Shown piece by piece: positions 2,306-62,546 of a stretch of 64,000 nucleotides of DNA. A model generated the notes under the pieces. It had not been told where the DNA came from. It worked only from the letters and a program-made list of their open reading frames with translations, and did not search any database. Source of the DNA: a virus (lineage: Duplodnaviria > Caudoviricetes); IMG/VR virus record IMGVR_UViG_3300027858_000004, positions 1 to 64,000 of that record; one strand, written 5' to 3'. The position numbers and the translations under genes are program-made. Positions within the stretch are counted from its first letter, which is position 1. Every line of letters begins with the position of its first letter.

Positions 2306-2366
2306 ATACAATTGATATTTCATTCTGAAGAATTAAGTAAAAGGATGTTTTTATTAAGATTGGAGA

Positions 2367-3257
2367 GTGTTCATGATGGTCTTTAATGACTATGTTATGG
2401 GGTTATTGTACGGAGACGGAAGTTTTACCATGAAAGAGAATAGAGAGTTTTATCTGTTTTCTAGTGTACATAAGGAATTAGCAGACAAAATTGAGATTGC
2501 TCTTCAATCTAATGATATCAGATACAGTCGTTTTGCAAGAGTACACGATGCAGAAGGTGAAACATCCAATTATGAAACATTAGAATTAGTGGAAATATAT
2601 GATAATCGATTCTTAGACTTTATAGTTAATAGTGGCTTTAAGTCTGAGTCAGTGGAAGACTATTTCAAAACTACTGGGGATTTTCTTAGAGGCTACTTAG
2701 AAACAAAAGGCACTCTATTTCAGTCTAATAGTAGAGGTAACATATTTTGGAGAATTTCTTTTAGTGGAAGTGAAGAGGAAATAAAGTTTTTGAAATCATT
2801 TCTAGAAAAAACATTAGACATAGCAGTGAGCAACATTGTTCAAAGAAATGAAAGACAGGAACAGGGAATTATAAGTAAGTCCTTTAGAATAAGCATTCAG
2901 AATAGATTGGGTGTAGCAAAGTTAGTTGAGTATACTGATGGAGAAGAGGTCTCAGCTTACTTAAAAGAGCGTGTGGATGGCTTTAAACTATTTGATAAGA
3001 CTAATCCATTTAATATGAAAAGGAAAGTCTATAAGCATTATAAATATGCAGTTGGATTCATGGCAAGAGAAATGCAATTAGATATTAAAGGGATAAGAGG
3101 AATAAGCATTAAAGATAGACAGAAGCCTCTATTTCTATTTGAGGATGAAGAGATTAAACAGTGCTTTAGAAACTGGGAATCTACTTACTATTGGATATGT
3201 GAAGAGTACAAATCAAAAACAGGTAAGAATCCTCCTAAAGTTGAATCCTTAAAATAA
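2367..3257 (+). CDS. LAGLIDADG-family endonuclease-like protein (free-standing)
   Basis: YVMGLLYGDGSF and degenerate DFLRGYLETKGTL motifs. Confidence 0.7.
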   Translation: MFMMVFNDYVMGLLYGDGSFTMKENREFYLFSSVHKELADKIEIALQSNDIRYSRFARVHDAEGETSNYETLELVEIYDNRFLDFIVNSGFKSESVEDYFKTTGDFLRGYLETKGTLFQSNSRGNIFWRISFSGSEEEIKFLKSFLEKTLDIAVSNIVQRNERQEQGIISKSFRISIQNRLGVAKLVEYTDGEEVSAYLKERVDGFKLFDKTNPFNMKRKVYKHYKYAVGFMAREMQLDIKGIRGISIKDRQKPLFLFEDEEIKQCFRNWESTYYWICEEYKSKTGKNPPKVESLK

Positions 3258-3343
3258 TAAGGATTGAATTATAAAATAGTTATTGACAAACAAATGAAAT
3301 TGTGCTATAATTAAGTTATAAATAAGAGATGGAGATGGTTTAA

Positions 3344-3976
3344 ATGTCAGATTACATTATCGAAACGATTGAAACAGAAAATTACAAATTGGAAATTTCT
3401 TATGACCAATGTGTAGAATCCCCTAGAGAGTGGAGCAATCTTGGTACAATTACGGCTTGGCATAGTAATTATAATTTATCTGATGATGGTGCTGATTTCA
3501 GAGACTATAGAAGTTTCCTTGAATATCATACCGACAAACATTTCAAGACACAGGAAGGCTTAGAAAATGCATCGGATGAGCGTTTAAAAGAGCTGATGGG
3601 AAAAGACTATATTGTTTTAACTGTTCATATGTATGAGCATGGTCAAGTAGCTCTAAGTACATCTTCATTCATGGGTAGGGCAATACATGCTGAGTGGGAT
3701 AGTGGAAGAGTAGGATTCATTTATGTTAGCAAAGAGAAAGTTAAACAAGAATACGGTGGCAAAGTTATCAACAAAAAGTTACGTGAAAGAGTAGAAGGAT
3801 ATCTTACTGGGGAAATTGAAATATATAGCAACTATGTTAATGGTGATGTTGTTAGCTATACTCTATTCGACAAAGATGGAGAAGAAGAGGACAGTTGTGG
3901 TGGATTCTTTGGATATGATTATAAAGTAAATGGGATAGCTGATTATGTTCCACAGGAAGTTGTAATGGCTTTATAA
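3344..3976 (+). CDS. conserved phage hypothetical protein
   Basis: SPREW..NLG, YEHG, WDSG.VGFIY, DSCGGFFG motifs recalled from phage/ICE proteins. Confidence 0.75.
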   Translation: MSDYIIETIETENYKLEISYDQCVESPREWSNLGTITAWHSNYNLSDDGADFRDYRSFLEYHTDKHFKTQEGLENASDERLKELMGKDYIVLTVHMYEHGQVALSTSSFMGRAIHAEWDSGRVGFIYVSKEKVKQEYGGKVINKKLRERVEGYLTGEIEIYSNYVNGDVVSYTLFDKDGEEEDSCGGFFGYDYKVNGIADYVPQEVVMAL

Positions 3977-4071
3977 GATAGTTAATTAAATATAACTCTT
4001 TACATTGGAAGGGATATATGTTAAGTTTAATATTATAAATATAAAAACAAATATGAATTGGAGATGTTAAT

Positions 4072-4272
4072 ATGATTTACAAAAAAGAAAAAGTATCAGA
4101 TAAAGTGGTTGAAGTGGTAGCAGTATCTAATGGGGAGTCATTAGTAGTAGGAACGATTCATGAAACAAATGGTTTATTTGCAACTGGAAATGGAAAGTTT
4201 CATGATACATTAGACGAAGCTTATACAAAAATTGTAACTGATTACGAAGTTAAAAAGTCAATCATGAAATAA
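4072..4272 (+). CDS. hypothetical protein
   Basis: GGAG RBS; hairpin 4279-4296 downstream. Confidence 0.65.
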   Translation: MIYKKEKVSDKVVEVVAVSNGESLVVGTIHETNGLFATGNGKFHDTLDEAYTKIVTDYEVKKSIMK

Positions 4273-4519
4273 AATTCGTGGGGTAGAAATACCCCAATTA
4301 CATAAAGGAGGCTCATCATGGTCAAGAAATTGAACAGCTACTTTTTATCCGATGTTGAAGATGAAATAGATGTAGTCGATTATATTTGGTTTTATGGTAG
4401 CTATGGAACAGTCATTACAGTAGCAACGTTGACATTTTTATCTTTCTTTAATAAATAGATATTGACAAAGTGTTATAATTATGTTATACTTAACAAATAA
4501 GAAATGGAGAGTGGATTAA

Positions 4520-5044
4520 ATGTTAGAATTAAAACAGTATAATTTATTAGAAGAAATTGATGGGTACGGTGAAGAAGACATCATAGAAGAAATGTCAAAT
4601 TATGATGGCAGCACTTATGTTTGTGATGCAATTTCAGAAATAGCAGATAGCAATATCCCAATTTACAATAATGACATTTGGAAGAATGTACAGGACATTC
4701 AAGAATACATTGAACAAGCGATTTCAAGTGGAATCGTAGATACTAGTCACAATGGTATTGATTTAATTAAAGTGTTTCAAGGTGGCTATTATGAATACAA
4801 TACACAATTGTTATATGCGAACCTTGATAGTGTAGCTTTCAATATGGTTGCTGATAAGCTAAATGAATATTTCAATACACTAACAGAAGAACAACTAACA
4901 AGTCTAGATTTAACAGAAATCGAAGAAGAGTTAGAATCCAAAACAGAGCATTTTGATAATAATAACTATCTTAGCGTGATTGATGATATTTTTGAAGAGT
5001 TGAAGGAAGAAATAGAAGAAGGCTTTGAAGATTCATCTGAGTAA
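4520..5044 (+). CDS. Ocr (T7 gp0.3)-like DNA-mimic anti-restriction protein
   Basis: DAISEIADSNIPIYNNDIW resembles Ocr DAIHMAADNAVPHYYADIF; DLIKVFQGGYYE resembles DVIRILQARIYE; very acidic; own promoter and terminator. Confidence 0.65.
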   Translation: MLELKQYNLLEEIDGYGEEDIIEEMSNYDGSTYVCDAISEIADSNIPIYNNDIWKNVQDIQEYIEQAISSGIVDTSHNGIDLIKVFQGGYYEYNTQLLYANLDSVAFNMVADKLNEYFNTLTEEQLTSLDLTEIEEELESKTEHFDNNNYLSVIDDIFEELKEEIEEGFEDSSE

Positions 5045-5050
5045 TAGCTT

Positions 5051-5076
5051 AAGAGGAAGATTTATTTCTTCCTCTT
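5051..5076 (+). terminator. hairpin terminator
   Basis: AAGAGGAAGA-loop-TCTTCCTCTT inverted repeat. Confidence 0.6.
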
Positions 5077-5161
5077 ATAAAATACATATTGACAAATGAA
5101 TTATGGTGTGCTATAATTTACTTATAAGCAAGTATAATAATAAGAGGGGAAATGATAAATA

Positions 5162-5392
5162 ATGAACGTTAAACTTTATGAGGATTTAAAAGAACAGTTT
5201 ACAATTATCGACATTGATTTCTATGATGAAGGGGATAAGACATATTTCTTATTTTATGCCAATGAAATCACAGAAAAAAAAGCTAATGAACTGTATGATG
5301 ATTATGATGAGAAGTATGGTGATGAAGAATTTCATGGCGCTTTTGAAGACTACTTACAGGAACTAGAAATTAAATACTATATCTTAAATTAA
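5162..5392 (+). CDS. small acidic protein
   Basis: ORF after promoter at 5089. Confidence 0.7.
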   Translation: MNVKLYEDLKEQFTIIDIDFYDEGDKTYFLFYANEITEKKANELYDDYDEKYGDEEFHGAFEDYLQELEIKYYILN

Positions 5393-5612
5393 AAGAGAAA
5401 TGGGGGAGTTGCAGTGGACAACGACAAAATTATCGAGTATGCAATCGCATGGCTTGAAACCACAATAGAAAAGCATGAAAACTTTATTAATAACTTTGAA
5501 GGCGACAAAGATAGTTTAGCTCAAAATTTAATGGTTGAACGGTATAAATCAGAATTAAAGCAATTGGAACATATGAGAAATTAATAATAACAGTATTTTA
5601 TCAAAAAACGAA

Positions 5613-5906
5613 ATGGAGAGATATGGAATGAGAACAAAGACAATAAAAGACGCAAAGTTAATAGTTAAAGTAGAAGGTTACAAAGATACTAAGAAAATAA
5701 AAACAGTTTCGATTTTTGATAATCGTAGTCAAAAGTATTTGACAGATGAATTTATTCAGGAGCGTAATGTTAGACACTTTTTAGATTTGAACGATATGAA
5801 AGAAACATTAAACTGGAATTTGAACGGGGACAGCTCAAAATATCAGTTCAAATGGGGACAAAGTGGGAAAACTCATTCAGAAGGATTATGTTATATCTTT
5901 GAATAA
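5613..5906 (+). CDS. hypothetical protein
   Basis: ORF bounded by palindromic sites at 5584 and 5903. Confidence 0.7.
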   Translation: MERYGMRTKTIKDAKLIVKVEGYKDTKKIKTVSIFDNRSQKYLTDEFIQERNVRHFLDLNDMKETLNWNLNGDSSKYQFKWGQSGKTHSEGLCYIFE

Positions 5907-6004
5907 AAAGTAAATATTATTAAAAGATATATATTGACAAATCAAATAAAATGTGCTATAATTAATTTATAGTACAGAATACATAGTAACTAGGAGGATA
6001 AGAA

Positions 6005-6348
6005 ATGAATAGAGAGCAATTAATTAAGGCGATTGAAGGCAACTACATAGTTATCTTTTCATTGGATGGTGATAGAAATATTCAAAGTGTTAATGCTAGA
6101 CGATATTTTGATAGAAAAAATATTACAATATTGGAACTTCCATTCAAATTCCCAATCATAGATATGATTGTTCAATCGTTGATATGTTTATATCTGAAAA
6201 AAATAAAACTCTATTTATAGCATTAAAAGAAATTTGTAACTGTGATAAACTTTATGATTGTTGTGACTGTGGTTGTGAAGATGGCGATGGTTGTGGTTGT
6301 GCTTATTGTTGGTCTTGCAATGCCTGTGAAGACTGTTTAAGCGAATAA
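6005..6348 (+). pseudogene. Frameshifted gene with Cys-rich (metallothionein-like) C-terminus
   Basis: The -1 frame opens exactly at the A6 run 6115-6120 and reads to TAA 6346-6348 with 12 Cys in the last ~38 aa. Confidence 0.55.
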
Positions 6349-6373
6349 TAATTAACTACTATTAAACTGGAGC

Positions 6374-6595
6374 GTGAAACAATTGAAAATTAAATTTATT
6401 GGTGAAGGTTTTAGCTTTAATGATGAAGTAAGATATGATGAGCTAATAGTGGATTTAAGTGGCGACTTCTTCCTAAGTTCAACGGAAGAAAAGAGTGATG
6501 ACAGATTAAAAGAAAATGATGCATTGCACATAGAAAGTAGCAACGGTGGACTATTTGTGAAAAAAGGTACTGTTAAAATTGAAGTATTAAAATAA
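6374..6595 (+). CDS. hypothetical protein
   Basis: ORF with GGAG RBS. Confidence 0.6.
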   Translation: MKQLKIKFIGEGFSFNDEVRYDELIVDLSGDFFLSSTEEKSDDRLKENDALHIESSNGGLFVKKGTVKIEVLK

Positions 6596-6609
6596 GAAGG
6601 GGTGTTATC

Positions 6610-6879
6610 ATGAAATCAGAAGAATTAAAACACATATCAGAAGAAGCAGATGTTAGAAACGCAAAAACTTTTTGGGATGGCTTCAAAGATGAACTTTTTC
6701 AAAGAATGAAACGCAATGCAGAAACGGGTTGTCGAGAATTTAGAGTGGATGATTCAGATGATAGTCTTAATAAACATGGGTGGTTAAAAGCTAGTAATCT
6801 CTATAAAAAAGCAATTGCTGAGTTGGAGCAATTGGGATATACAGTCAATCATTCTAATGATGTAAAAGATGGCACTTAA
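6610..6879 (+). CDS. hypothetical protein
   Basis: ORF with AAGGGG RBS. Confidence 0.65.
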   Translation: MKSEELKHISEEADVRNAKTFWDGFKDELFQRMKRNAETGCREFRVDDSDDSLNKHGWLKASNLYKKAIAELEQLGYTVNHSNDVKDGT

Positions 6880-6923
6880 ATTATAATTAGATGGTAAAGG
6901 AATATTAATAAGGAGGCTTTACG

Positions 6924-7301
6924 ATGAGAGAAAAGTGGATTGGCGAAGAAAATGACACCAGTGGTACATATGTTAAAACTACATGTAGCGAACTATCTTT
7001 AAGAAGAGGAGGAAAGATAAACGCAAAGAAACTATACAGATTTAAAAGTAGATTTGGAGGAGAGTATAATATCACTGATGAAGAGGCTATTTCAAATATA
7101 GAAGAATTATTACCTAAAGGAGAAGAGGAAAATTCAGTTAAGTTATATGAATACCTATACGGATTAGTTATAGAGCAATTTGGAATGATTGAATTTATTG
7201 TAAACATTGGACATCATGTTGCAAAAGAGCGTGATGATGGCTATGTACGGGGCAAAAAACAAATGCAAAAGGAAATGAGAAATTTACTGGGGATAAGATA
7301 A
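6924..7301 (+). CDS. hypothetical protein
   Basis: AAGGAGG RBS. Confidence 0.6.
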   Translation: MREKWIGEENDTSGTYVKTTCSELSLRRGGKINAKKLYRFKSRFGGEYNITDEEAISNIEELLPKGEEENSVKLYEYLYGLVIEQFGMIEFIVNIGHHVAKERDDGYVRGKKQMQKEMRNLLGIR

Positions 7302-7321
7302 ATCAGTAAAAGTTTACTTTT

Positions 7322-7624
7322 ATGAAGGAGGTAAGAATTATTATGAAAACATTCAGTAAATTAAGACAAGAATATTTAAATAAAGGTTTAAATTTAGCAT
7401 ATATAAGAAGTGGTAAAAAATATTCAATATCAATCGTTAATGTGCCATTTGTAGTAGAAGGGATTGAACATGAAACAGGCACTTGCCAACTAACAGGATA
7501 CTATAATATCTATGACAAGGCGCAATTGCAAGATGTGGATATGATGTTTGAAAGAGTTATTAATTCATACAAAGAGCAATATGCAACCAATGAAACTATG
7601 TTATCTTATGTAGATAATATTTAA
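7322..7624 (+). CDS. hypothetical protein
   Basis: AAGGAGG RBS (real start probably 7343); bounded by sites 7306 and 7624. Confidence 0.65.
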   Translation: MKEVRIIMKTFSKLRQEYLNKGLNLAYIRSGKKYSISIVNVPFVVEGIEHETGTCQLTGYYNIYDKAQLQDVDMMFERVINSYKEQYATNETMLSYVDNI

Positions 7625-7706
7625 TAAAAACTGAACTTTATTAAATTAGTTATTGACAAATGATATATCGTGTGCTATAATTAACTTATAAGATAAGAAA
7701 AGGAGA

Positions 7707-8546
7707 ATGATAAATATGATAGCAATTAACTTTGAACAGACGGTTAAAAATTTCTTGGAAGGTATTACTGATTATGAAACTCTAGATTTATCAGAAATAG
7801 AAGTGGATGTTTTAATTCAACATGTTGCAAACGAACTAGAAGGATATGAAGATATTGAGCAGAGCAATGTGGAACGTGAGATAAACATCTATCTTCAAAA
7901 TACAGGATTCACTTATGACGATGAGGCAGAAGCGTGGGAATTGGCAGAGAAAGTAGATTATCCTCACTATAAAGAAATGTACGTTTTAAAATATAACATG
8001 AAAGAACTTGCTTTTGACACGATAGAAAAGGCAGAGGCTTACATTAAGGAAAATGATGTTGCATACCCCGAAGTAACTCTAAGCGATGTTAAATATACAA
8101 ACAGACATAGCTTTGAAATTATACAGGACAATGAAACATTTGAATATGAAAAAGGAAAGTTAGAAAAAGTGGAAGATATGAAATGTAACATTTGTGAAAC
8201 TGGGGAAATGGAACATAAACAACTGAAAAAAACTCATGTGTATATCTGTGTAGAGTGTCCTAATGTTCAACTAGAATATTCTTTCTATGAAGATATCGAA
8301 AACTTGTCAGCTTACTTGCGTGGGGAATTAGAGCCTTTGACGGAAGAAGAGCAAATGGAATATATTTTAGCAGAGTTTCTTGGTTTCCATAGTTACGATG
8401 GAAACAGTGAAAAGCTATCTCATGAAGTTAAATTATTAATTAACAACAATGAAGAGATACATGCAAATGTTTCTGAAACCTACCGATTAAATGGTAAACA
8501 AGACGAGCTAATGGAAAAAGTAATCGACTCTCTTCTAATTCGATAA
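7707..8546 (+). CDS. acidic multi-domain protein with Zn ribbon
   Basis: CNIC...CVEC motif; promoter at 7653. Confidence 0.75.
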   Translation: MINMIAINFEQTVKNFLEGITDYETLDLSEIEVDVLIQHVANELEGYEDIEQSNVEREINIYLQNTGFTYDDEAEAWELAEKVDYPHYKEMYVLKYNMKELAFDTIEKAEAYIKENDVAYPEVTLSDVKYTNRHSFEIIQDNETFEYEKGKLEKVEDMKCNICETGEMEHKQLKKTHVYICVECPNVQLEYSFYEDIENLSAYLRGELEPLTEEEQMEYILAEFLGFHSYDGNSEKLSHEVKLLINNNEEIHANVSETYRLNGKQDELMEKVIDSLLIR

Positions 8547-8638
8547 TAAAAGTTGAATATTATTAAGAAATACTTATTGACATATTCTGTTTAGTATGCT
8601 ATAATTAGTTATAAGCTTAAGGAAGAGGTTGATAGCAA

Positions 8639-8884
8639 ATGAAATTTAAAACAGTATATCTTGATAAATGGGACAATGACTTACAGGATTCACCCAATCG
8701 CATTAAAGGGGTGAATGAGGTTATAGAGGTTGTAAGGCAAGAGGGAGGTTGTGAGGTCTCTTTTGATTACGAAGGAAGAACAAGGCATATGTCAGCATCT
8801 GAAAACTTTGCGAAAATGCTACCTGAAGACTTCAATTACAATATTGGCTATAATTACGAGTTTACGATTACTCTTAAGAAATAA
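8639..8884 (+). CDS. hypothetical protein
   Basis: ORF after promoter at 8577. Confidence 0.7.
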   Translation: MKFKTVYLDKWDNDLQDSPNRIKGVNEVIEVVRQEGGCEVSFDYEGRTRHMSASENFAKMLPEDFNYNIGYNYEFTITLKK

Positions 8885-8942
8885 GGATGGTGGAAGTAGA
8901 TTAATTCTACTTCCTAATTCCATACATAATGGAGGTAACACA

Positions 8943-9152
8943 GTGGGCAGAATAAACTATTCTTTAGGACACAAATACATAAATCAGTTTGATAAGAGAA
9001 AACAGGCAGAAATTATTATTGATATTGTTAATGCACTAGTTGAGATTGACCATGTGGATGATTTGCAGAGCTATTTAAATGATGCACTTGATAGTAGACT
9101 GGGAGACTTAATCGATTTAATAGACATAGAAAAACACATGATAGAGAATTAA
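8943..9152 (+). CDS. hypothetical protein (start revised from 8751)
   Basis: GGAGG at 8931 before GTG 8943. Confidence 0.6.
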   Translation: MGRINYSLGHKYINQFDKRKQAEIIIDIVNALVEIDHVDDLQSYLNDALDSRLGDLIDLIDIEKHMIEN

Positions 9153-9246
9153 TTTTAAACTATCTATTGACAAATAAAATATAGTGTGTTATAATTATAT
9201 TATAGTAAAGAAGAGGAAAACAAAACAATCAGAATGGAGCTTACAT

Positions 9247-10179
9247 ATGAAAATAGATGACTTGAAAGCCAAAGTATTAAAAGCAGAAGAAAAGGTTGAA
9301 AAATGTAAGAAGACGATTGAAAGACACGAAAAGCAAAAGATTAAAAAAATTGATGCACTTGTGAAAAAAGGAATTAATCTTGTAGGATTAAATAAAGAGG
9401 ATGTAGAAGAAATTCAATTTGAACATCGTGGAACAGATGAATCATGGGAGATATCTGAAGTGAAGTTCAAACTGGAAGACATTAAAGGTGCTACAAGAAA
9501 ACTATCCGATGCAGAGACAATCCTAAACAACTGGAAGAATAAGCTTGATGCCGAAATAGAAAAAGATAACTTCATTAACAATAGTGTTCCACAGGTTATC
9601 AAAGACTTCCTAGAAGAGTGGAAAAACAATGCTTATGAGTGGCACTTAAGAAAATATGATGCATATGTAGAGTTCCTTGAAAAGCTAAAGACCGATAAGC
9701 TTGAAGCCATCATTGAGTGTGTTAAAACGTTTGAGGTGTATTCTCATCTATTAAATGAAGATGGAGAAGTTAAAAATACAGATGAGTATTCTTTAATAAA
9801 CGTTCGACCAAGTGGCACTGTGAAAAACTTCTTAGAAGAAAAGAAATTAGATTATAGAAGTATTGACCAAAGAAAGAAAAACTTTGGTGGAGCTATTATT
9901 CAAAAGATGCATGAAATTAGAAGCAAAGAAGAGAGAGAGCAATGGATTAACAATCAATTGGAAAATGAAAAGAAATCAAAAATGATTGACTTAATCACTC
10001 GTATTAACGGTATTGTAGGTACTATTACGGATGCTTCAGAGTTGCGTATAAGCGTTAAAGGGAATTTAGATGGATTCATTACTGGAACAGACGGAAAAGC
10101 TAAAATTGAAACAGTGGGCGCAGGTGGTTACAATATTCAATTATTTCACTTTAGAACATTGGTACATGAAGTGAAATAA
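9247..10179 (+). CDS. conserved phage coiled-coil protein (start revised)
   Basis: C-terminal GNLDGFITG...ETVGAGGYNIQLFHFRTLV motif; ORF-track start overlaps the promoter. Confidence 0.8.
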   Translation: MKIDDLKAKVLKAEEKVEKCKKTIERHEKQKIKKIDALVKKGINLVGLNKEDVEEIQFEHRGTDESWEISEVKFKLEDIKGATRKLSDAETILNNWKNKLDAEIEKDNFINNSVPQVIKDFLEEWKNNAYEWHLRKYDAYVEFLEKLKTDKLEAIIECVKTFEVYSHLLNEDGEVKNTDEYSLINVRPSGTVKNFLEEKKLDYRSIDQRKKNFGGAIIQKMHEIRSKEEREQWINNQLENEKKSKMIDLITRINGIVGTITDASELRISVKGNLDGFITGTDGKAKIETVGAGGYNIQLFHFRTLVHEVK

Positions 10180-10188
10180 TAATCAAAG

Positions 10189-10212
10189 GTGACACTCTTA
10201 ACAGGGTGTCAC
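10189..10212 (+). terminator. hairpin
   Basis: GTGACACTCT-TAAC-AGGGTGTCAC. Confidence 0.55.
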
Positions 10213-10302
10213 ACATAAAATATATTTATAAATAGTTATTGACAAATACATAGTAATGTGCTATAATTAAGTTATAAGTAAGAAGAAAACAAATGACAAG
10301 CA

Positions 10303-12541
10303 ATGAAGGAGGAAGGTATAATGGAATTTACAATTGATTCAAGTTTAAAAATCATAAAAGATGTTGAAGGGGCAAGAAAAGTAATAGAAAGAATTACAGA
10401 AGATAACACTCTAAGAATAGAAATTGAGAGTGGGGAGATTGCAGAATTTGCATATAGCAAAGAATCTCAAAGCACATTTTCAAGTGGAATAGGTATCACC
10501 TATTTAAATAGCAGCTCTACCCCTTTCAATACTATTCCAAACCTATATGACAAGGAAACTGCAAGTAGATTGCTCTATGCTAACAGAAGAGCCTACAACA
10601 AGAAATTTAAATAATAGGAGAGATTAAAGTGAATAAAATCAAAGCGATAGATGTATTTAATTGTAATAATGTATTCCCAAAACCATTTCATGAGTGTGTG
10701 GAGATTGCTAAAAGTGTGGGATATTCGTATATGTCTTTTAACACTATGGTGGTTAGTGTGGATGCTAATAGCACATCAGATTATATTTGTTTAGAAAAAG
10801 ACTTAGCAGTATAATACGTGTCTTTTATTAAAAGAATGGAGGAACAATGATATGGAAGAAATCAAAATCATAGGTTACTTTGTTGATAAGGATGGAGACA
10901 AATCAATACCCAGTGACGTATTCGTTGCGATTGATGAAGTGGCAGATTTTAAAGGCAATTTGACAATTTATTGCACAATTGGTCAACATGGTAGTGCTAG
11001 TTTAGAATATATTAAGGAATGCGAAGAAATTACAAAAAAAGAGTATATTGAAGCTAGTAGAGGTCTTTATACACCTGTTGAATATATTTAATAAAAAAGG
11101 AAGGGGGAAATTAAATGAGTATCAAAGAACAACTATTAAATTTGGGGATTAATGAAACTGAAATTGATACACATGAATCTGATTTATATGTTTTAGTCAA
11201 TGACATTTCTAAAGAATGGCTTTCAACGTATGAATTTAAAAGCATTGTTTACATGTTTAGGTCGGAAATTGACAATAAACTTTGGTACGATATTCCGTTC
11301 GGTTACATGAATGAACATTATGAAAATAGATTTAATTTGTGAGTTTATAGGAGGTTATTCTTATGGAAGAAGTTATAATGAAAGACGGTTTTTTGAATAG
11401 CTTAGACTTTGCACTAGAACAATTAGAAAGACAGTCGGAGTTATTTGAAGAGGCAGAAATGAATGCTGAAAGAATTAGAACTGATACCTTAATAAGAGAG
11501 TTAAGACAGGTTATAGATAAATCTGAAAGATTGGTTTACTTTGTAAATAATGGATTTGATAAAATGTGATATTTATTAAAAAAGAGGGGTGACTATATGC
11601 AAAGACTTGACATTGAAACGTGGAAAAATATATTTAGGAACATACGAGAAGCACAGGAAGAGCAAGAAAAAGAAGAAGGTATAGAAGAGCTGATTAGAGA
11701 TGGTGTAGTTGAAAGAATTGATGTTGAGGTAACTTGGTTAGAAACTGACGATGAGTGGTGTCTATGTAGCGAATACGAGCTATTTGAAGATGGTTTTAAA
11801 ACAGAAGAAGAAGCAATGGAGCGTTTGAAATATCTAGAAAATATTTTACTGTGATTGATAAATTGCGACTTTTATGAAAATTGAATGGAGGGTTAAAATG
11901 GCTATTTACAAAAGTGGAGAAGCAATCGTTAAATTTAGTTTATTAAAAACTACCGACACTAGAAAGCTTTATAATTTTATTGTTAATATACAAGGCAATG
12001 AGGATTTTGTTTTTAACGGTGAAGATTATTCATGTCCTATTAGTTGGTCTGATGAACAAATTGCAAGTGATATGTTTAATTGGGCATTGGATATGTCAAT
12101 GGAGGGCGACTTAGACCTTTTGAATGCTATTGCTTTCAATGAGTATGTGGGCAATGAGAATACACCTTTAGTTGAACAAATTTAATAAAAAGCTGATATT
12201 ATGAAGGAGGATGAGGAATGAAGTTTCTACATGGCATATCAATAGCAATATTATATTTACTTGGTATTATTAAGGTTTTTGGTGGAATTGGAATTCATCT
12301 TTATACAGTATATCTATTTTTCATAGTTCATGGTGTATTAGGTGGAGCGATTTCATTATTTTTACCAGTGTTATCGCAAATTTTTATGGGGTTTAAATTG
12401 GTTTCTTATTATGGATGGAATACTCTTTATCCAATGATGTTAATAGCTTATGTGTTAGTTCATATATTGAGCTTTGTGTTCGCTTTAATTGTTACATATG
12501 CTGAAGATAAAGCTATAAAAAAATCACTAATTAAAAGCTAA
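10303..12541 (+). other. Operon of 8 small hypothetical ORFs (10303, 10629, 10852, 11115, 11363, 11597, 11874, 12218; the last is a membrane protein)
   Basis: Each has an RBS; one promoter at 10239; several junctions carry the 18-bp palindrome. Confidence 0.75.
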
Positions 12542-12670
12542 TTTGTAGAAAAATCATACTTCATAGCTTCATAATTAATTGAAGTATGATTTTTAAAAAA
12601 TATTTATTGACATATACATGTTGGTGTGCTATAATTAAGTTATAAGTAAGGAACACATAAAAGAAAGAGG

Positions 12671-13288
12671 ATGATGAATATGTCAAAGTTTGAAAATTAC
12701 TATAATCATGTGAATGAAGAAGCAGAAGGATTTGTAGGACAATATCTAGAAGATTTCATACACGACATTTCAAACGGAAGTACGGATGTAGACAGTCTAT
12801 TAGACGATGATGGAAAGTTACATGAGTACTGTGACCAACACTTTGACTTAAGGGATGCAGTAGAAATCTTAGAACAGTCTAATAATGTTGAAGAAGATAG
12901 TGGCTTATGGGAAAGCTTAAGCCCTATAGAAGCAGTTGAATCAATGGGATTTTGGACATTTAAAAACGATATGCGAGATGCAGTAAGAGAACAGTTGGAA
13001 GATAAATTAGAAGAAAAGAAAACAGATTTAGAATCAGAATTAGAAGACTTGGAGAAAACAAAATCAGAAATAGAAGAAAAAATGGAAGAATTAGAAAATG
13101 AAAGAGATGAGTTGGATGAGCTAGATGAGATGGACGAAGATGAACAAAAACGTTATGATGAGATTGAGACTAAAATTGGGGAACTAGAAAAAGAAAGGTT
13201 AGATGAAAATGAAGAGGATATTGAAGATGCTATCGAAACAATGGGATATACAATAGATTATTTAGATGAGGCAATAGACTCTATCTAA
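12671..13288 (+). CDS. second Ocr-like acidic protein with coiled-coil tail
   Basis: LHEYCD...EEDSGLW resembles Ocr LHDAIH...FEDSGLM; extremely D/E-rich. Confidence 0.5.
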   Translation: MMNMSKFENYYNHVNEEAEGFVGQYLEDFIHDISNGSTDVDSLLDDDGKLHEYCDQHFDLRDAVEILEQSNNVEEDSGLWESLSPIEAVESMGFWTFKNDMRDAVREQLEDKLEEKKTDLESELEDLEKTKSEIEEKMEELENERDELDELDEMDEDEQKRYDEIETKIGELEKERLDENEEDIEDAIETMGYTIDYLDEAIDSI

Positions 13289-13328
13289 ATCAGTAAAATC
13301 TACTTTTTATTAAATTGGAGGAATTAAG

Positions 13329-13514
13329 ATGGATAAATATTATGAAGTAGCAATTTCAGTTGAACAAGTTTTTAGTTATAAAGTAAAAGCTAAAAATCCA
13401 ATTGAAGCAGAAGAAAAAGCAGTAAACACACTGAAAAGAGAAGAAGACTATGCGGTGATTTTGGATTCAGATGGAGCGATTGAAGAAATTACAGAAGATG
13501 AATTTTACGATTAA
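13329..13514 (+). CDS. small acidic protein
   Basis: GGAGG RBS; VKAKNPIEAEEKA motif; bounded by sites 13293 and 13514. Confidence 0.7.
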   Translation: MDKYYEVAISVEQVFSYKVKAKNPIEAEEKAVNTLKREEDYAVILDSDGAIEEITEDEFYD

Positions 13515-13551
13515 TAAAATATCCATATTATGAAATAGGAGATGATAAAAA

Positions 13552-13920
13552 ATGACAACATTCTTAGAAGCAACTAGACGATGGGTTAATGAGTGGAATG
13601 CTATTCCTACTGATGCAGTCAACATTTTAATGAATCATGACATAGATTCTAATGGGGATAGCTATGAAATAACAGAAGAAAGAGAAACCGTTTATGGATA
13701 TCCTGTAGGATGGGGAACAATGTGGACTTTTGGCGAGTCTTTAGACAGTGATTGGGCAATGGAAAATAAAGAAATACTAGAGAAATGTGGGGTAGTTGCA
13801 TACTACACTGAGTCTTTAGGGGTTGTTATTGGTATTGACGGTGGAGGCTACGACTTTTATGACCAACATTGGATTCCACTATATAAGGCTAGAGGCTTAC
13901 AGTGGCATAGTGGAGAATAA
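13552..13920 (+). CDS. conserved phage hypothetical protein
   Basis: WGTMW...GIDGGGYDFY..HWIPLY motif. Confidence 0.75.
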   Translation: MTTFLEATRRWVNEWNAIPTDAVNILMNHDIDSNGDSYEITEERETVYGYPVGWGTMWTFGESLDSDWAMENKEILEKCGVVAYYTESLGVVIGIDGGGYDFYDQHWIPLYKARGLQWHSGE

Positions 13921-14042
13921 ATTAACTTAGATGTATTTTAGGAGGGGAATAATAATTCCTTTCCTAAAAGATAGTTATTGACATTTACATAAGTATGTGC
14001 TATAATTTATTTATAGTAATAAAGAGAAAGAGGCTGATAATT

Positions 14043-14567
14043 ATGGATTACTCATTCAACGGAATTACAGGACAAGTAAACACATGTTACTTAAAAGCTG
14101 AATGGATAGGATTTGATTCAGAAGAGTTTATGTTCACTAAGAAAACGTATGAGCATAAAGAGGAAGGATTAAGCTTTAAATATCTATATGCAGTATCAGT
14201 CACTAATGTTGGGGACTCCAATGGAGAAGATTTGAATTTGGTTACACTAGAGCTAGTAGTGGATAAATCATCCCTTGCGCCAAAGGTCTTAGAATCAATT
14301 TTAGATTCAAGTGGTTGTGATTCTATTGATGAGATTGATAATTGGAATATCATAGCAGAAGGTGGTAGCTCTATTATCATGGGCGAGGAGCTTGTTGGTG
14401 AAGATGATTTAGAGAAGACTATTATAGGTGCAATGGCTACTGTAAGGTCAATAGACAGCATGAGAGGATTCTTTATTGATAAACCCATGAACAATTTTGG
14501 AATGACAGGTTGGGACATCATTAAATATTCAATTGGGAATAAAGAAGAGCTATTTGAAATTAAATAA
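14043..14567 (+). CDS. hypothetical protein (start revised)
   Basis: AGAGG RBS; ORF-track start lies in the promoter. Confidence 0.7.
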   Translation: MDYSFNGITGQVNTCYLKAEWIGFDSEEFMFTKKTYEHKEEGLSFKYLYAVSVTNVGDSNGEDLNLVTLELVVDKSSLAPKVLESILDSSGCDSIDEIDNWNIIAEGGSSIIMGEELVGEDDLEKTIIGAMATVRSIDSMRGFFIDKPMNNFGMTGWDIIKYSIGNKEELFEIK

Positions 14568-14648
14568 ATATTAATAAATAGTTATTGACATATCATCTTT
14601 AGTGTGCTATAATTAATTTATAAGTAAGAAACACACAAAAGAAAGAGG

Positions 14649-14924
14649 ATGATGAGAATGAAAAAATCAGACTTCGAATTTAAATGTGATAGATGCACAG
14701 ATGGAAAAATGGAAAGATACGGACACATTGATAATGGTATTTGTTATAAATGTAGTGGTGTTGGTAGATTAATGTATAATCCACAACCATTTGGAGTAGA
14801 AGAAAAGTTGAATCAATGGTCTGAACAAGAATACTGGGAAATTCAAGCAGAACAGGAAAAAGAACTTAATGCACAAAAGGATTACTTTGAGTATGTAGTA
14901 AACGATGGTGGGTATGCTTGGTAG
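14649..14924 (+). CDS. DnaJ-type Zn-finger-like small protein
   Basis: CDRC.DG...CYKCSGVG. Confidence 0.65.
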   Translation: MMRMKKSDFEFKCDRCTDGKMERYGHIDNGICYKCSGVGRLMYNPQPFGVEEKLNQWSEQEYWEIQAEQEKELNAQKDYFEYVVNDGGYAW

Positions 14925-15007
14925 TTGAGAATGGGAAGGGGTTCCTTCCCTAAAGTAAAGAATCAGTAATAACGATATTTTATTAAAACTCGAATGGAGG
15001 AAATTAA

Positions 15008-15825
15008 ATGCACTATATAATGGTATGGATACATGAAGAAGAAAAATGGTATTACTTCATAAATGATTTTGATTCAAGTCAATTCCCTAACGGATATGTA
15101 GATTATTATATTGAGGTGAACAATGGGGCAATTGTAAACGATAGTTGGGAATCTTCAAATGAAGGTGAGAAATTTATGGATTGCTATAACTCATCGTTAT
15201 GGGCAATTGCTTCTTAATAAAAGAACGATTGTATTAATTGTATAACAAAAAACTAAAAATAGAACGGAGACAATTATAATGACAATTAAAAATCTTTCCC
15301 AGTTTAAAAAGTGGTTAAGCAAAGGAAACAAAATTCAATTCTTAGAAAACACTATGAAACCAGAAATGGCAAACGGTCAAATTAGAGAGGTGAACATTGT
15401 ACAAACAAATAGCTTTACAACTTTAGTAGGCGAAAAGGATTCATGGTTAGAGTTTCCAAAGGCTAAAGAATTAATGTTTAATTCAGATGGAACTATTGAC
15501 TTTATTAATAAACATGATGGCGAAATGTGGTTAAAAATTAAACCATTAACATAATAAAAGTAACGGTTTTAACTTAGAAAGGAAGATGGCAATGGCACAC
15601 AAAATAGTTACTATAAACGGAAACAGATTATTTGAATTAACATATATGGGCGACAAACAGTTTTGCACAATTGAAAATGTAGGTGAGGACGAATATTATG
15701 CTTATAATCAAATGGGCGAAGGTTATTCTGTAGCAGAGCTAAACACAATTGAAATCGTTGAATTGATGACCACTGGCGAAGTAGAATGCAGTGTGGAACA
15801 ATCAAACCATTTAAACCACGAATAG
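15008..15825 (+). other. three small hypothetical ORFs (15008, 15279, 15586)
   Basis: RBSs present; separated by palindromic sites at 14966, 15217 and a 7-bp-spacer variant at 15554. Confidence 0.7.
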
Positions 15826-15919
15826 AACAAACAATAGGGATATAAAATTAGTTATTGACATATTACTGTTAATGTGCTATAATTTACTTATAGAAAGATA
15901 CAGAAAGAGGATGATACAG

Positions 15920-16297
15920 ATGGGTCTAGATATGTACTTAGTAAAAGAAAAAGAAGATGGCAAATTAGATTACACTAATGAATTAGCATATTGGAGAAAA
16001 GCCAACCACATTCATTCATGGTTTGTTAAAAACGTGCAAAATAACACTGATGAATGTATAGCTCATCAAGTCTCAGAAGAACAACTGGAAGAGCTATTAA
16101 GAGTGTGTAAAGAGGTATTAAAAGACCATAGTAAAGCTGATGAGCTTTTGCCCACACAAAACGGATTCTTCTTTGGTAGCACACAATACGATGAATATTA
16201 TTTTGGGGCTATTGAGGAAACTATAGAAACTATTGGTGGAATTTTAGATAACTTTGATTTTAAAAATGAGAAATTATATTATGACTCTAGTTGGTAA
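15920..16297 (+). CDS. conserved phage hypothetical protein (MGLDMY...YWRK family)
   Basis: MGLDMYL, AYWRKANHIHSWF, GFFFGS, YYDSSW. Confidence 0.8.
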   Translation: MGLDMYLVKEKEDGKLDYTNELAYWRKANHIHSWFVKNVQNNTDECIAHQVSEEQLEELLRVCKEVLKDHSKADELLPTQNGFFFGSTQYDEYYFGAIEETIETIGGILDNFDFKNEKLYYDSSW

Positions 16298-16389
16298 AAA
16301 TAAAATTAATTTATGGTTTCAATGCACCAAAAATATAGTATTATGGTAATGGTAAGAAAATACTAAAAAAGAGAGTGGGAGAAATGAGA

Positions 16390-16689
16390 ATGAGCAATCT
16401 ACTAGCTATGAAAGATTTATCTTCACAACAATTGGCAATGGTACAATCTGAGGTTAAAGGCAAAGAAAAGTCAAAAGGCATCGCATATGCACTATGGTTC
16501 TTTTTGGGTGCTTTAGGTGGTCACAGATACTATGTTGGCGATATTGGAATGGGTATTACAATGACACTGACACTAGGTGGATTAGGATTTTGGGCATTAA
16601 TTGATGTGTTCTTTATTGGTTCTCGAATTGAAAAGAAAAATGAGGATTTAGAATATAATACAATCCTAAAAGTAAAGGCAATAGCATAG
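16390..16689 (+). CDS. TM2-domain membrane protein
   Basis: KSKGIAYALWFFLGALGGHRYYVG TM2 signature. Confidence 0.85.
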   Translation: MSNLLAMKDLSSQQLAMVQSEVKGKEKSKGIAYALWFFLGALGGHRYYVGDIGMGITMTLTLGGLGFWALIDVFFIGSRIEKKNEDLEYNTILKVKAIA

Positions 16690-16692
16690 CTA

Positions 16693-16759
16693 ACTCGACT
16701 AAGCGAGTATAAACAGACATTTAGGCTTAGAGCGTTCCCTGTGAAAACGGGGAGGTTGT
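16693..16759 (+). ncRNA. Pistol self-cleaving ribozyme
   Basis: P1 ACUCG/CGAGU; loop CUAAG pairs with CUUAG (16726-16730); AUAAACAG linker; UUAG and AGCG conserved; P3 UUCCCUGU-GAAA-ACGGGGAG; G|U site 16755/16756; P2 ACA/UGU. Confidence 0.85.
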
Positions 16760-16790
16760 AAGACAATATAAAATTAGGGATGTAATAATT

Positions 16791-18191: not shown

Positions 18192-18206
18192 ATTGGAGAT
18201 TATAAT

Positions 18207-51913: not shown

Positions 51914-51942
51914 CATAAAAGACTGATTTTATTAAAAGTTAG

Positions 51943-59428: not shown

Positions 59429-59476
59429 TATAAGTTAGTTATTGACAACATTAGTATACTATGTTAAGCTAATGGA

Positions 59477-59899
59477 ATGAAAGGGGATGTGCGAGTGATT
59501 AGACCATATAAAGAAAGAACTTTAAATGCAGGAGACCCAGTTATAGTTTATAGAAATTTGAACAATGGGATGTTCTCTATAAGATGTGCAAGAACAAACT
59601 TGGTTTTAGCTCATGGTAATAGCTTTATTGTTCAAGGAAGTCCTAAAGTAAGTGAGGTAAGTAGACTAAGGGTTATAAAGGAAAAGAGAAAGTCAGTTCA
59701 CGCATTTATCTTAGGAACCTTTCAAGAGGAAGACGCTGAGAAGTACTCCTACAGCATTGTGGACGAGGCTTATTACAATCCTTATACTACAGACTCCTTC
59801 ATTTATAAAAAGAACAATACAAAAGTTACACATGGTGATTTCCTATTTAAAGATGGGAAAGCATATGTGATAAATTCCTTAGTTTTAAAAACTAGTTAA
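59477..59899 (+). CDS. conserved phage hypothetical protein
   Basis: VYRNL...S.R, KRK.VHA, YNPY; promoter at 59442. Confidence 0.75.
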   Translation: MKGDVRVIRPYKERTLNAGDPVIVYRNLNNGMFSIRCARTNLVLAHGNSFIVQGSPKVSEVSRLRVIKEKRKSVHAFILGTFQEEDAEKYSYSIVDEAYYNPYTTDSFIYKKNNTKVTHGDFLFKDGKAYVINSLVLKTS

Positions 59900-60082
59900 T
59901 AGCATGGAGGGTTTAAATGATTCATAAGAATGAAGAGATAAAATATACTTCGCTACAAGAAATCTTTGAGAGTGAGAACCTTTCAGAAGCCTTAGCCAAA
60001 GCATATAGAAGAATTGATTCACTCCTTGAAAGAGAAAGAAGTTTAGAACTACAAATTGAAATGATGAAAGGGAGAGATAAAT

Positions 60083-60991
60083 ATGAAGAATAAATCAGAA
60101 GAACTAAAACTAATGTTTATTAAGACTAAAGAGAAGATATTTGTATCTGACAATGTAGCAGGAAACAGCTATTTCCACACAAAGCTTGCTCATTTATATT
60201 TTGATGGAGAACTACCAGCAAAAACATTTAAAAGCGATTGGTTTGAATTAAAAAGTATTCCAATTGAATTAACAAGAAAAGTACCAGAAAGAGAAATTAA
60301 TCATCGATATGAGTTAAAAGAAGGATTCGTAGTAACTGAATTAACTCCACAAACTATCCATGAGAGATATATAGATGAAGACAGTGAGTACTACGAAGTT
60401 AAAGGGCTGTACACTCGCCAATATGAAACAGAAGATGCAGGATTTGAAGTTGTTCCATTTGAAATTCATTTAGTAGAAGAGGTTGAAGGAAACTTCGAAA
60501 TAACTAGGAGTCAATATAATCCACAGTATGGGTTGCTGGACAAGATACAGACCCATCCAAATCTATTGCAATTAAAACCTTGTAAACTAACAAAGGAAGA
60601 AACGTACAAAATTATTCGTGAGCATATAAAGCTCAACATTAATCCTAAATATGCTCGTATCTCTAGTGATTACGACTTCTGCTTAACCGTTGAGAAAGTG
60701 ATTGAACGTTTTGAGCCAGAGTCATACACAGTAGATTTAAATGCTATGTGCCCACGAAGAAAACCAAAGCTTGAAACCAGATATAGAACCTCTAGAAAAG
60801 CTAGAGTGTATGAAGCAGCACCAAAATCTTACCAAAAATATCCTATTGTTGAAAACTTTGTTGGAGAAAGTCTACAAGACTTAGATAACAACATTAAAAT
60901 ATTCTTACACAAATTAATGGATAAAATCAATGAGCCAGTTGTGGATTGTGAACATTGTAAAGGAAGAGGGGTCATCACTAATGGAAATTAA
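60083..60991 (+). CDS. conserved phage protein with C-terminal CxxCxGxG
   Basis: SDYDFC.TV.K, CEHCKGRG. Confidence 0.8.
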   Translation: MKNKSEELKLMFIKTKEKIFVSDNVAGNSYFHTKLAHLYFDGELPAKTFKSDWFELKSIPIELTRKVPEREINHRYELKEGFVVTELTPQTIHERYIDEDSEYYEVKGLYTRQYETEDAGFEVVPFEIHLVEEVEGNFEITRSQYNPQYGLLDKIQTHPNLLQLKPCKLTKEETYKIIREHIKLNINPKYARISSDYDFCLTVEKVIERFEPESYTVDLNAMCPRRKPKLETRYRTSRKARVYEAAPKSYQKYPIVENFVGESLQDLDNNIKIFLHKLMDKINEPVVDCEHCKGRGVITNGN

Positions 60992-62546
60992 ATTAGATAA
61001 AGATTACATGTTGAATGAGCTGGATTTACCTGATAGAGCAATATTTGATGAGATTGATGGAACATCAATATGGAGCATTGAACATAGGATTATTTTTGAG
61101 TATCAAGGAAAGTTCTATCAAACATACTATTCTGTTGGAGCGACTGAGAGTCAATATGAATCCCCTTGGCAAGATGAAGATGAAGTTGAATGCCATGAAG
61201 TTGAGTTAAAAGAAGTAACAGTTAAGAAGTGGGTTCTTAAATAATTACACCAAAGGAGAATAAAAGATGAAAATAGAACAACTTTTAAAAACCATTAACA
61301 CTCGCACACAAACAGAACAGTTTTTAAAAACTGTGGCAGAAATATATGCTATTTTGAATGAAGAGGATAAATTGAAATTAGTAGAAGCATTGGGTGGAAA
61401 GTATAACATTTCACGTACCACTATTTTATTAGAAGAGCTTGGCAAATAAAATACGGTTTTTATTAATATAGGAGGTAAAAAGCGAAAATGATATATTTAT
61501 TGGGATTTTTGTATTATTTGCTCGTAAGCATATTATTGTTGACTGGAATCATGGATTCGTCGAGGGTTATAGCGTCTGCTGGATGGTTCATATGCGCAAT
61601 ATGGGTTGTAGTGGTTTATCGGATAGCTAAAAGGACATAAAATCTGTATTTTATAGGAAGGTGAGAAAGTGCACCAATATAATGAGAAATTAAAAGTTAT
61701 TGTAATAACCGAGGATAATAAACAGAATCAAAAGTATTTTAATCTTTTTAAAGTTCTATTTAACAATAGCATTGAAGAAGTGAGAGACTTCAACTACGAA
61801 AAAAGAATCACCATCAATAATTCAGAGTTTAGATTTATTATTAAAAGTGAATCAGCAAGAGGATTGAAAGCTCACTATGTGTTGAATCTAACACAAGATG
61901 AGGAATTTCACAGAAATAGAGCTATGCCGATGACTAGCCCACACAGTAGTTTAAAAGAAATTGAGAAGTGGTCAGAGCTGTTTACGAAGTTATAATATAA
62001 AATCGGAGGAATTAAACAATGACAAAAGCTATGGAACTAAGTGTTGACTATGATGGATACTATGGTGGAAGTGTTAATGAAATTTTATTATTGCCATTAG
62101 ATATTAATGGAGTTCTATTTGAAGAATTAGAAGAAAAGACCTATGACAGAGCAGTTTATTTAGGTGAAATTGAAGGCAAGCACAGTGAAGTTTATGGAGA
62201 TTTGACAGTGCGCTTTGTTGATTTGGATACTCTGCCTGTTCGAGAGGTTTCAGAGTTAATTAAAGCATCAGATTTTGGTGAGTTTGAGGGATTCTTTGAA
62301 CGGATTGAAGGTGACTTCCAAGATGATGAAGATGAGTACAACATAGAAAAAGTAAAAGAATTGCTTAACTCTTATAATGTAAAACTTGAAAAATACATGA
62401 TTAAAACATCATTTGTTAACTATGAGTTCATCGAACAATTGAAAGAGAAGTATGTGCAAAAGTTTAAGAATGTCACTGTTCTGGATGATGATTATGATTT
62501 AGTAGTTAAACTACTTAATGAAAACAATATTAAATACTTTGATTGA
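60981..62546 (+). other. small hypothetical ORFs (60981, 61267, 61488, 61669, 62019)
   Basis: RBSs; palindromic sites at 61446 and 61637. Confidence 0.65.

Follow-up and report, generated by a model that had tools for sequence, protein, structure and literature searches.

An 18-bp inverted repeat, RTAAWA-N6-TWTTAT, recurs between the genes of a tailed phage (Caudoviricetes; IMG/VR record IMGVR_UViG_3300027858_000004), of which the first 64 kb (positions 1 to 64,000 of 166,074 bp; hereafter the window) were analyzed here. The two arms keep a strict spacing of 6 bp, the copies are placed between genes, the motif is restricted to phages and conserved across several of them, including SPbeta, and breakpoints between related phages pile up at its edges. 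Tentatively, we read these copies as sites on duplex DNA that a phage protein, symmetric and probably a dimer, would recognize; their role would be operator-like, with the exchange of gene modules as a consequence.

A dyad with fixed spacing at gene boundaries

At 23 distinct places in the window the strict pattern gives a total of 41 matches over both strands, compared with 0.87 ± 1.23 (maximum 5) in 100 dinucleotide shuffles of the same DNA. The whole record holds 45 strict places where about one is expected, 36 of them within a block of plus-strand genes at 0-103 kb, and both strands are matched at 34 of the 45. On the plus strand of the genome 42 matches have a spacer of 6 bp, and no other spacer between 0 and 20 has more than 4; the corresponding figures for the window are 23 and at most 3. 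When the search is confined to intergenic DNA (21.2 kb, 28% GC), 36 matches are found at spacer 6 and 0-3 across spacers 3-10; 300 runs of a first-order Markov null averaged 0.41 matches and never exceeded 4. All 42 plus-strand spacers are distinct, which disfavors exchange between different sites. These counts bear out what the initial annotation had noticed, namely a recurrent repeat with a preferred 6-bp spacer of variable sequence, and show it to be enriched over the AT-rich intergenic background. Its four example copies (29955, 13293, 51915 and 61446) are all present, the extended left arm AATCAGTAAWA is found at 7301, 13288, 14961 and 36056, and strict sites are absent, as it had stated, from the ATP-binding cassette (ABC) operon (41.3-51.9 kb) and from the block running from the single-stranded DNA-binding protein gene to the primase gene (52-61.4 kb). 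Its total of about 38 sites stands only for the 23 strict ones; the remainder requires degenerate copies, and the window's 26 one-mismatch copies at spacer 6 (18 of them intergenic) compare with 8-27 for spacers 3-10, so that only about a dozen exceed the background.

The consensus extends to TTAATAAAA-N6-TTTTATTAA. In an alignment of 34 copies the dyad widens to TTA-ATAAAA-N6-TTTTAT-TAA, a 9-6-9 arrangement with mirrored flanks, the conserved flank positions being T-2 and A0 on the left and T19, A20 and A21 on the right (n = 34). The two W positions of the arms, 5 and 14, vary independently: they are complementary in 19 of 42 sites and non-complementary in 23. The 24-mers fold weakly, with a mean minimum free energy (MFE) of -0.77 kcal/mol (z -0.62). 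The independence of W5 and W14, together with the lack of a stable fold, suggests two equal half-sites that are read on duplex DNA and not on a folded strand.

Placement was scored with simple, crude gene calls. Although coding DNA makes up 89% of the genome, 38 of the 45 sites count as intergenic, having no fewer than 9 non-coding bases. The preceding stop codon has its final base at motif position 1 in 10 cases and at position 4 in 6, and the ribosome-binding site (RBS) follows 8-15 nt 3' of the right arm. The proposal that the copies lie at the stop codons of small open reading frames (ORFs), ahead of an RBS or promoter, was thus correct. An early promoter begins 11-13 nt 3' of the right arm at three sites (5903, 8546 and 16883; only these three in the first 20 kb), and the dyad itself contains no promoter. 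The sites, some 23-35 in the window, are fewer than its gene boundaries (roughly 110): a site stands on either side of ORF 13329-13514, and a single one adjoins ORF 5414-5584.

The closest protein relatives of the phage are Brevibacillus phage Sundance, Bacillus phage SP-15 and Lysinibacillus phage LC76P1 (49-60% identity). It also encodes SPbeta-like proteins, detected by tblastn: a helicase (43% identity), a primase (42%), a polymerase (50%), a RecJ-like protein (38%) and a Sak4-like protein (39%). Counts of ATAAWA-N6-TWTTAT amount to 34 in this phage (G000), 14 in SPbeta, 11 in G003 (a 150-kb contig with terminal repeats), 7 in G004 (a 145-kb contig) and 11 each in G005 and G006 (SPbeta-like proviruses). 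In a de novo scan for 5-mer dyads, TAAAA-N6-TTTTA comes out on top in SPbeta (34 copies versus 1.6 for other spacers), G003 (20), G005 (29) and G006 (27). By our reading of the SPbeta annotation, 12 of its 14 strict sites lie on a stop codon or outside annotated genes. No spacer-6 peak appears in the ATAAWA-Nk-TWTTAT counts of LC76P1 (1) or Sundance (0), and SP-15 and G002, which also show no enrichment, hold two or three places each. Nor is there any excess in 61 sampled Bacilli genomes (163 sites versus 231 for the reversed control), which identifies the motif as a feature of phages and not of their hosts; a host-wide element, such as a ComK-type box, was rejected on this result and on the lack of excess in one Paenibacillus genome. 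An IMG/VR scan with the 24-mer returned mostly single chance matches. The motif family is common to SPbeta and other large phages with sroD-E-F-type or Xer-like genes.

Junctions between related phages and the edges of the motif

A search of phage records, IMG/VR, genome contigs and metagenome contigs found no close relative of this phage (the best matches among metagenome contigs had 56-61% amino-acid identity). Since such relatives are missing from the records, the prediction that breakpoints of gene gain, loss or replacement fall at the sites was tested in SPbeta-like loci instead. Fourteen loci, each roughly 21 kb long with SroF as the anchor, were compared all against all with megablast; high-scoring segment pairs shorter than 200 bp or below 88% identity were discarded. 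Of the 339 unique junction ends obtained, 67 lie within 3 bp of the core motif. Shifting the motif by 40-200 bp leaves 0-11 junction ends, and 30-bp shifts leave 16 and 45. Among the 296 distinct intergenic regions a junction occurs in 66 of the 75 that contain the motif and in 72 of the 221 that do not (odds ratio 15, p 1e-17), a difference that persists in three length classes. The association of breakpoints with the sites was therefore confirmed.

Their exact position was mapped with the low-complexity filter off and with truly unlike DNA required beyond each end. Among the 130 junction ends found -60 to +80 nt from a motif copy, 45 are homology starts at positions -8 to 4 and 58 are homology ends at positions 15 to 42, while a single one of the 130 falls inside positions 5-14. 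18-mers that are identical down to the spacer recur between different genes, and the sequence switches exactly at the motif edges; for ATAAAATTGAAGTTTTAA six pairings are seen, made up of three genes on the upstream side and four on the downstream side. Whole-genome comparison of G005 and G006 added five junctions that fall within or at a site; junctions J1, J3 and J5 of this pair look hybrid. The expectation that breakpoints would fall inside the 6-bp spacer was not borne out: they lie at the outer borders of a motif that is itself intact and identical. The initial annotation had also cast single ORFs as excisable or shufflable cassettes. The arm-6-arm geometry, the boundary sites and the breakpoints agree with this, but ORFs do not seem to be regularly flanked on both sides and the breakpoints are at the edges. 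The cassette idea is partly supported, catalysis by a recombinase being its conjectural part.

Two gut-metagenome runs, X2 and X3, contain contigs that match stretches of the early region (2001-22000) at about 88-90% identity, with their genes in a different order. Among the joints listed, four from these runs have an end within 6 bp of a strict site. X2/X3 joint 2205->2336 carries 108 foreign letters before homology returns one base ahead of the site at 2337; joint 16688->16883 carries 502, with homology returning at the first base of the site; and joint 13316->13510 skips ORF 13329-13514, which lies between two sites. In X2, the fourth is joint 13289->5922, and the 25 letters intervening in joint 5392->15245 contain ATAAAA-ACAGTA-ATTTAT, the spacer of which is that of the 5584 site of the window, now placed directly behind ORF 5162-5392. 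Like the SPbeta-like loci, these contigs fit the predicted association of breakpoints with sites. Joints at repeated early promoters were not used as evidence, since these repeats exceed the assembler's word length and the joints may be assembly effects. The record itself was found whole in a marine-metagenome run, X1.

Possible readers of the sites

A dyad this strict, spaced by a fixed length of free sequence and conserved in distant phages, suggests that a symmetric protein binds it. The arms stay constant between phages with no more than 25-50% identity in the proteins they share, which argues that the reader is conserved as well. Such a protein, placed on dozens of gene boundaries, would block or organize read-through transcription in the manner of stoperators and might thereby silence the early region. 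The sroD-E-F-like trio of the window, the site behind the promoter that leads into ArdA and this trio, and the distribution of the DndB family favor this reading. Because the same 18-24 bp unit is present at many boundaries, with copies shared by related phages, the sites would also be pivots of module exchange, through short identity or through catalysis, exchange being a by-product of the repetition of one short unit. The candidate binders are two products of an operon-like gene group in the window, homologues of SPbeta SroE (25278-26597) and SroD (24201-25256).

These two genes and the one that follows reproduce the yopP-yopQ-yopR (sroD-E-F) order of SPbeta on the plus strand. The first, at 24201-25256, encodes a Xer-like tyrosine recombinase homologous to YopP/SroD (Pfam Phage_integrase, 1.1e-16; match to SPbeta yopP, E 7.9e-15), in which the catalytic R, K, H, R, H and Y are all present by alignment to XerA (4a8e/5hxy). 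The second, at 25278-26597, is a DndB/ParB-like YopQ/SroE homologue (Pfam DndB, 2.1e-11; 27% identity to SPbeta by tblastn, E 4e-42), and the third, at 26634-27638, is a homologue of the recombinase-fold repressor MrpR/SroF (Pfam MrpR_N_CB and MrpR_C_cat; PDB 9rd5, 1.4e-32; YopR 8bj6, 1.4e-18). The intact recombinase reported earlier at 24201-25256 is thus intact as to its residues and its alignment with XerA, but it belongs to a lysogeny-repressor module. According to PMC8612738, the sroD-E-F operon is confined to SPbeta-like arbitrium phages and YopP is described only by its XerC-type domain. The SPbeta master repressor MrpR/SroF has a tyrosine-recombinase fold and no recombinase function, and binds the repeated element SPBRE; chromatin affinity purification sequencing (ChAP-seq) places it at 10 peaks, at SPBRE promoters (PMC10516654). 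This suggests that any binder of the palindromes is another protein. In phi3T, SroF acts as a monomer on a 26-bp asymmetric box, such boxes being phage-specific, and SroE is presented as a second repressor whose mechanism is unknown (bioRxiv 10.1101/2025.11.27.690993). An ArdA anti-restriction gene lies directly upstream of the trio (window 23425-27638), and no AimR-sized gene was seen upstream of this region.

A second Xer-like recombinase, homologous to SPbeta YomM, is encoded on the minus strand in the late gene block (genome 134836-135801) and keeps all six catalytic residues in the XerA alignment. A motif copy lies 15 nt upstream of its gene start here and directly behind the YomM-like gene in G005 and G006. 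Across genomes, the DndB family (SroE) occurs in five of the six motif-bearing ones (not in G003) and in none of the four motif-free ones; SroD-like proteins occur in five of the six and also in motif-free LC76P1 (37-38% identity); YomM-like proteins occur in this phage, SPbeta, G003, G005 and G006 (five of six; not in G004) and weakly in LC76P1. A tblastn search with all ORFs, combined with DndB and ParB_N scans, found no family that is present in all six motif-bearing and absent from all four motif-free genomes. A 432-aa ORF of G003 with a faint ParB_N match proved unrelated to SroE.

Several points weigh against a dedicated operator-like reader. G003 has 11 sites, a YomM-like protein as its sole recombinase and no homologue of DndB, SroD or SroF, and LC76P1, which has the closest SroD homologue (37-38% identity), is without the motif. 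The sites lie between genes rather than on promoters, and a roadblock effect would be argued by analogy. Stoperators, moreover, are asymmetric sites whose orientation follows transcription and whose reader is a monomer, whereas the sites here are palindromic (34 of 45 matching both strands). The junction statistics come from SPbeta-like loci and not from the phage of the window, their counts are junction ends among related sequences and not independent events, and the joints in the gut contigs are those listed, 15 of 45 (table 5) and 12 of 27 (table 5c). As to binding itself, the proteins named are candidates proposed from their genes.

Of the alternatives, the one that survives best, although we consider it rather unlikely, holds that the motif is the core site of a phage Xer-like recombinase (the SroD/YopP-like protein at 24201 or the YomM-like protein at 134836-135801) that exchanges only sites with identical spacers. 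Allelic exchange would then take place with co-infecting or resident relatives, or between redundant genome ends; unique spacers would prevent internal deletions, and modules would be shuffled over time. The 9-6-9 inverted geometry with its 6-bp spacer suits such an enzyme, as do the 42 distinct spacers, the two Xer-like proteins with complete catalytic residues, the presence of some Xer-like recombinase in all six motif-bearing genomes and the site adjoining the YomM-like gene here, in G005 and in G006. Identical-spacer exchange also predicts the observed footprint, in which unlike DNA adjoins one side of a site that is intact and identical; exchange between unlike sites within the spacer does not fit. 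The same footprint, however, would be left by recombination through 18-30 bp of identity or by selection; Xer-like genes are also found in motif-free LC76P1 and Sundance, and SroD belongs to a repressor operon whose SroF member is without catalysis.

Less probable still is that no dedicated protein is involved and that the motif is a linker, kept for its identity in homologous or annealing recombination like the PeSLs (promoter and stem-loop elements) of T4-type phages or the linkers of Susskind and Botstein. The pile-up of junctions at the motif could be explained in this way; Sak4-type annealase and RecJ-like genes are common to this phage and SPbeta, and repeated early promoters are also joint points in the contigs of relatives. 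Identity alone, however, leaves unexplained why the dyad is strictly symmetric, why the spacing is always 6 bp although the spacer sequence is free, and why the arms stay the same in phages with 25-50% protein identity; selection for evolvability alone would be weak.

Action in RNA, as a terminator, a processing site or a stabilizing intercistronic hairpin, seems very improbable to us. Placement between cistrons speaks for such a role, and the GenBank record of SPbeta annotates two copies as stem-loops (2622-2651 and 116406-116431). The weak fold of the 24-mers (mean MFE -0.77 kcal/mol, z -0.62) and a W5/W14 pair that is non-complementary at 23 of 42 sites argue against it, and on these grounds a hairpin or terminator was dismissed. 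The RNA-processing signal that the initial annotation had offered as an alternative falls under this improbable reading. The motif is also symmetric and occurs upstream of promoters and in regions transcribed either way. Terminator-like sites number only six in 20 kb, none coinciding with the motif. Finally, that the motif arises by chance from TAA stop codons in AT-rich intergenic DNA, as arms containing TAA and a GC content of 28% might suggest, is ruled out by the spacer test (0-3 matches at spacers other than 6), the intergenic Markov null (36 observed, 0.41 expected) and reversed controls of 0-1 in other phages.

Individual sites, neighboring genes and known systems

In the early region, strict sites were located by pattern match as follows. 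The first, at 2337-2354 (GTAAAA-GGATGT-TTTTAT), precedes an RBS, and the X2/X3 contigs regain homology at 2336. At 5584-5601 (ATAATA-ACAGTA-TTTTAT) the stop codon of ORF 5414-5584 ends at motif position 1; the spacer recurs in X2 directly behind ORF 5162-5392. The site at 5903-5920 has a stop codon in its left arm and the -35 box of an early promoter 13 nt downstream, and the X2 joint resumes at 5922. The extended arm AATCAGTAAAA is found at 7306-7323, at 36061-36078 and at 13293-13310, the left border of ORF 13329-13514 and a place touched by the joints 13316->13510 (X2/X3) and 13289->5922 (X2); the right border of this ORF, at 13514-13531, is supported by the X2/X3 joint as well. A related arm, AATCAGTAATA, belongs to the site at 14966-14983. 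At 8546-8563 the stop codon ends at position 1 and an early promoter follows 13 nt downstream; at 10811-10828 the left arm contains a stop codon; at 12185-12202 the stop is at position 1 and an RBS comes next. The site at 16883-16900 has an early promoter 11 nt downstream, and X2/X3 homology resumes exactly at 16883 after the 502 foreign letters. A stop codon lies in the spacer at 20327-20344, and the site at 23027-23044, which precedes the ArdA and sroD-E-F genes, lies 18 nt 3' of the -10 box belonging to the final early promoter.

Farther right, strict sites lie at 29955-29972, behind an RtcB RNA ligase gene (28733-29950), at 33444-33461, at 35628-35645 (stop at position 1), at 41199-41216, at 51915-51932, and at 61446-61463 and 61637-61654, both with a stop codon in the left arm. 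Two others may be fortuitous: 37793-37810 spans a stop/start overlap, is mostly coding and is possibly a chance match, and 38454-38471 lies within a TTGACA-17-TATTAT promoter-like site, possibly by coincidence. The one-mismatch scan added ATAAAA-TGTGAT-ATTTAT at 11559-11576 (given earlier as 11567), as well as 34125-34142 and 38178-38195 (given earlier as 34126 and 38179) and 34731-34748, these three having the right arm ATTTAT. A further one-mismatch copy, ATAAAA-GAACGA-TTGTAT, stands at 15217-15234 behind ORF 15008-15217, and the X2 joint resumes at 15245.

All window genes are on the plus strand, and the ends of the record overlap by 99 bp. Early promoters form a separate repeat family: 25 perfect copies of TTGACA-N17/18-TATAAT lie at window positions 590-23010 and in the last 4 kb of the genome (162449-165915), and TG precedes the -10 box in all but one. 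They have an additional conserved AGTTA upstream and TWAnTTATAgGTAAG downstream, which creates a second dyad, TATAA-N5-TTATA, present in 26 copies; this dyad may be the operator of the phage's SroF-like repressor. Sundance has an enriched dyad of its own, AATAC-N2-GTATT, with 8 copies versus 0.5 for other spacers. In SPbeta-like loci many motif copies are followed by ACAAATTAAAAG before the RBS, and at two places in SPbeta (132746-132786 and 113663-113703) the palindromes are directly followed by sequences with 3 and 6 mismatches to the phi3T SroF box.

Other window genes include 39005-41098, which encodes a 697-aa protein without a Pfam family that has relatives (31-60% identity) in Sundance, SP-15 and LC76P1 and in many phages of Salmonella, Klebsiella and Cronobacter; 31142-31840, whose 232-aa product weakly resembles the Rok winged-helix family (E 0.0011, short of the Pfam cut-off); and 46043-47581, part of the ABC-transporter-like operon, in which an NMT1/THI5-like solute-binding domain is fused to a C-terminal OmpA domain. 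The late promoter of YonO was considered as an identity for the motif and rejected, because YonO starts the late operon at one site and the SPbeta motif occurs in early and late regions. An 811-aa ORF (154019-156454) examined as a YonO candidate is instead a RecD2-like helicase.

The motif lacks at least one defining feature of each known system that it resembles: PeSLs, stoperators, SPBRE/SroF boxes, Xer, pdif or integron sites, and boundary sequences. PeSLs are repeated intergenic motifs around small variable early ORFs that bound indels and replacements in T4-type phages (PMC2839356, PMC4122927). Here too a repeated intergenic motif borders indels between close relatives, but a PeSL is a promoter plus stem-loop of about 50 bp thought to recombine by homology, whereas the present dyad spans 18-24 bp, leaves the sequence of its spacer free and contains neither a promoter nor a stable hairpin; the separate, highly conserved early promoters are the closer counterpart. 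The stoperators of Cluster A mycobacteriophages are dozens of short intergenic sites at which the bound lysogeny repressor stops elongation (PMC9283540, PMC3029335), and the likeness lies in the many copies in short intergenic gaps (38 of 45 sites here). SPBRE and SroF boxes are likewise repeated elements of this phage group, with a reader of recombinase fold from an operon present in the window. SPBRE, read from the 10 ChAP-seq target regions as AAATACAAAWAATATGTATA, lies on promoters and differs in sequence and layout, most of the 14 strict SPbeta palindromes being away from the 10 MrpR peaks; the phi3T box is a 26-bp asymmetric monomer site in contrast to the symmetric palindrome, and a scan of this genome for it gave best matches with 5-6 mismatches, away from the sites. 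An SroF box was for these reasons rejected as the identity of the motif.

With Xer/dif, pdif and attC sites the motif shares inverted arms around a 6-bp center, nearby Xer-like recombinases and genes bounded by sites. Their arms are 11 bp long, however, as compared to 6-9 bp here, where regular two-sided flanking seems to be lacking and breakpoints fall outside the spacer; the folded single-strand structure of attC has no counterpart, and neither an integron integrase nor attI is present. Boundary, or linker, sequences were conceived as short conserved sequences at module junctions, which is also what is seen here. According to PMC3029335, such sequences could not be found at most mosaic boundaries, whereas here one motif lies near many junctions (130 of 339 ends within -60 to +80 nt of a copy). 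In the literature searched, the scope of which did not extend to Brady et al. 2023 or to supplementary files, no prior description of the motif was found.

How phage mosaicism comes about, by way of short conserved linkers or by illegitimate joining at random with later selection, is a long-standing question. In a phage group that includes SPbeta, one defined dyad of 18-24 bp marks a large share of the exchange points, and as SPbeta is genetically tractable in Bacillus subtilis the two views can be put to the test there. SroD and SroE, both encoded in the lysogeny operon of SPbeta, and YomM, the recombinase of its late region, also gain a candidate DNA target in the motif. It is conceivable, although doubtful, that SPbeta-type phages practice programmed gene exchange, the copies being core sites, each with its own 6-bp spacer, at which YopP/SroD or YomM joins same-spacer copies only. 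If this were true, co-infecting or resident relatives would swap whole modules cleanly at gene boundaries, and redundant ends would be joined without host RecA, while the genome would remain safe from internal deletions.

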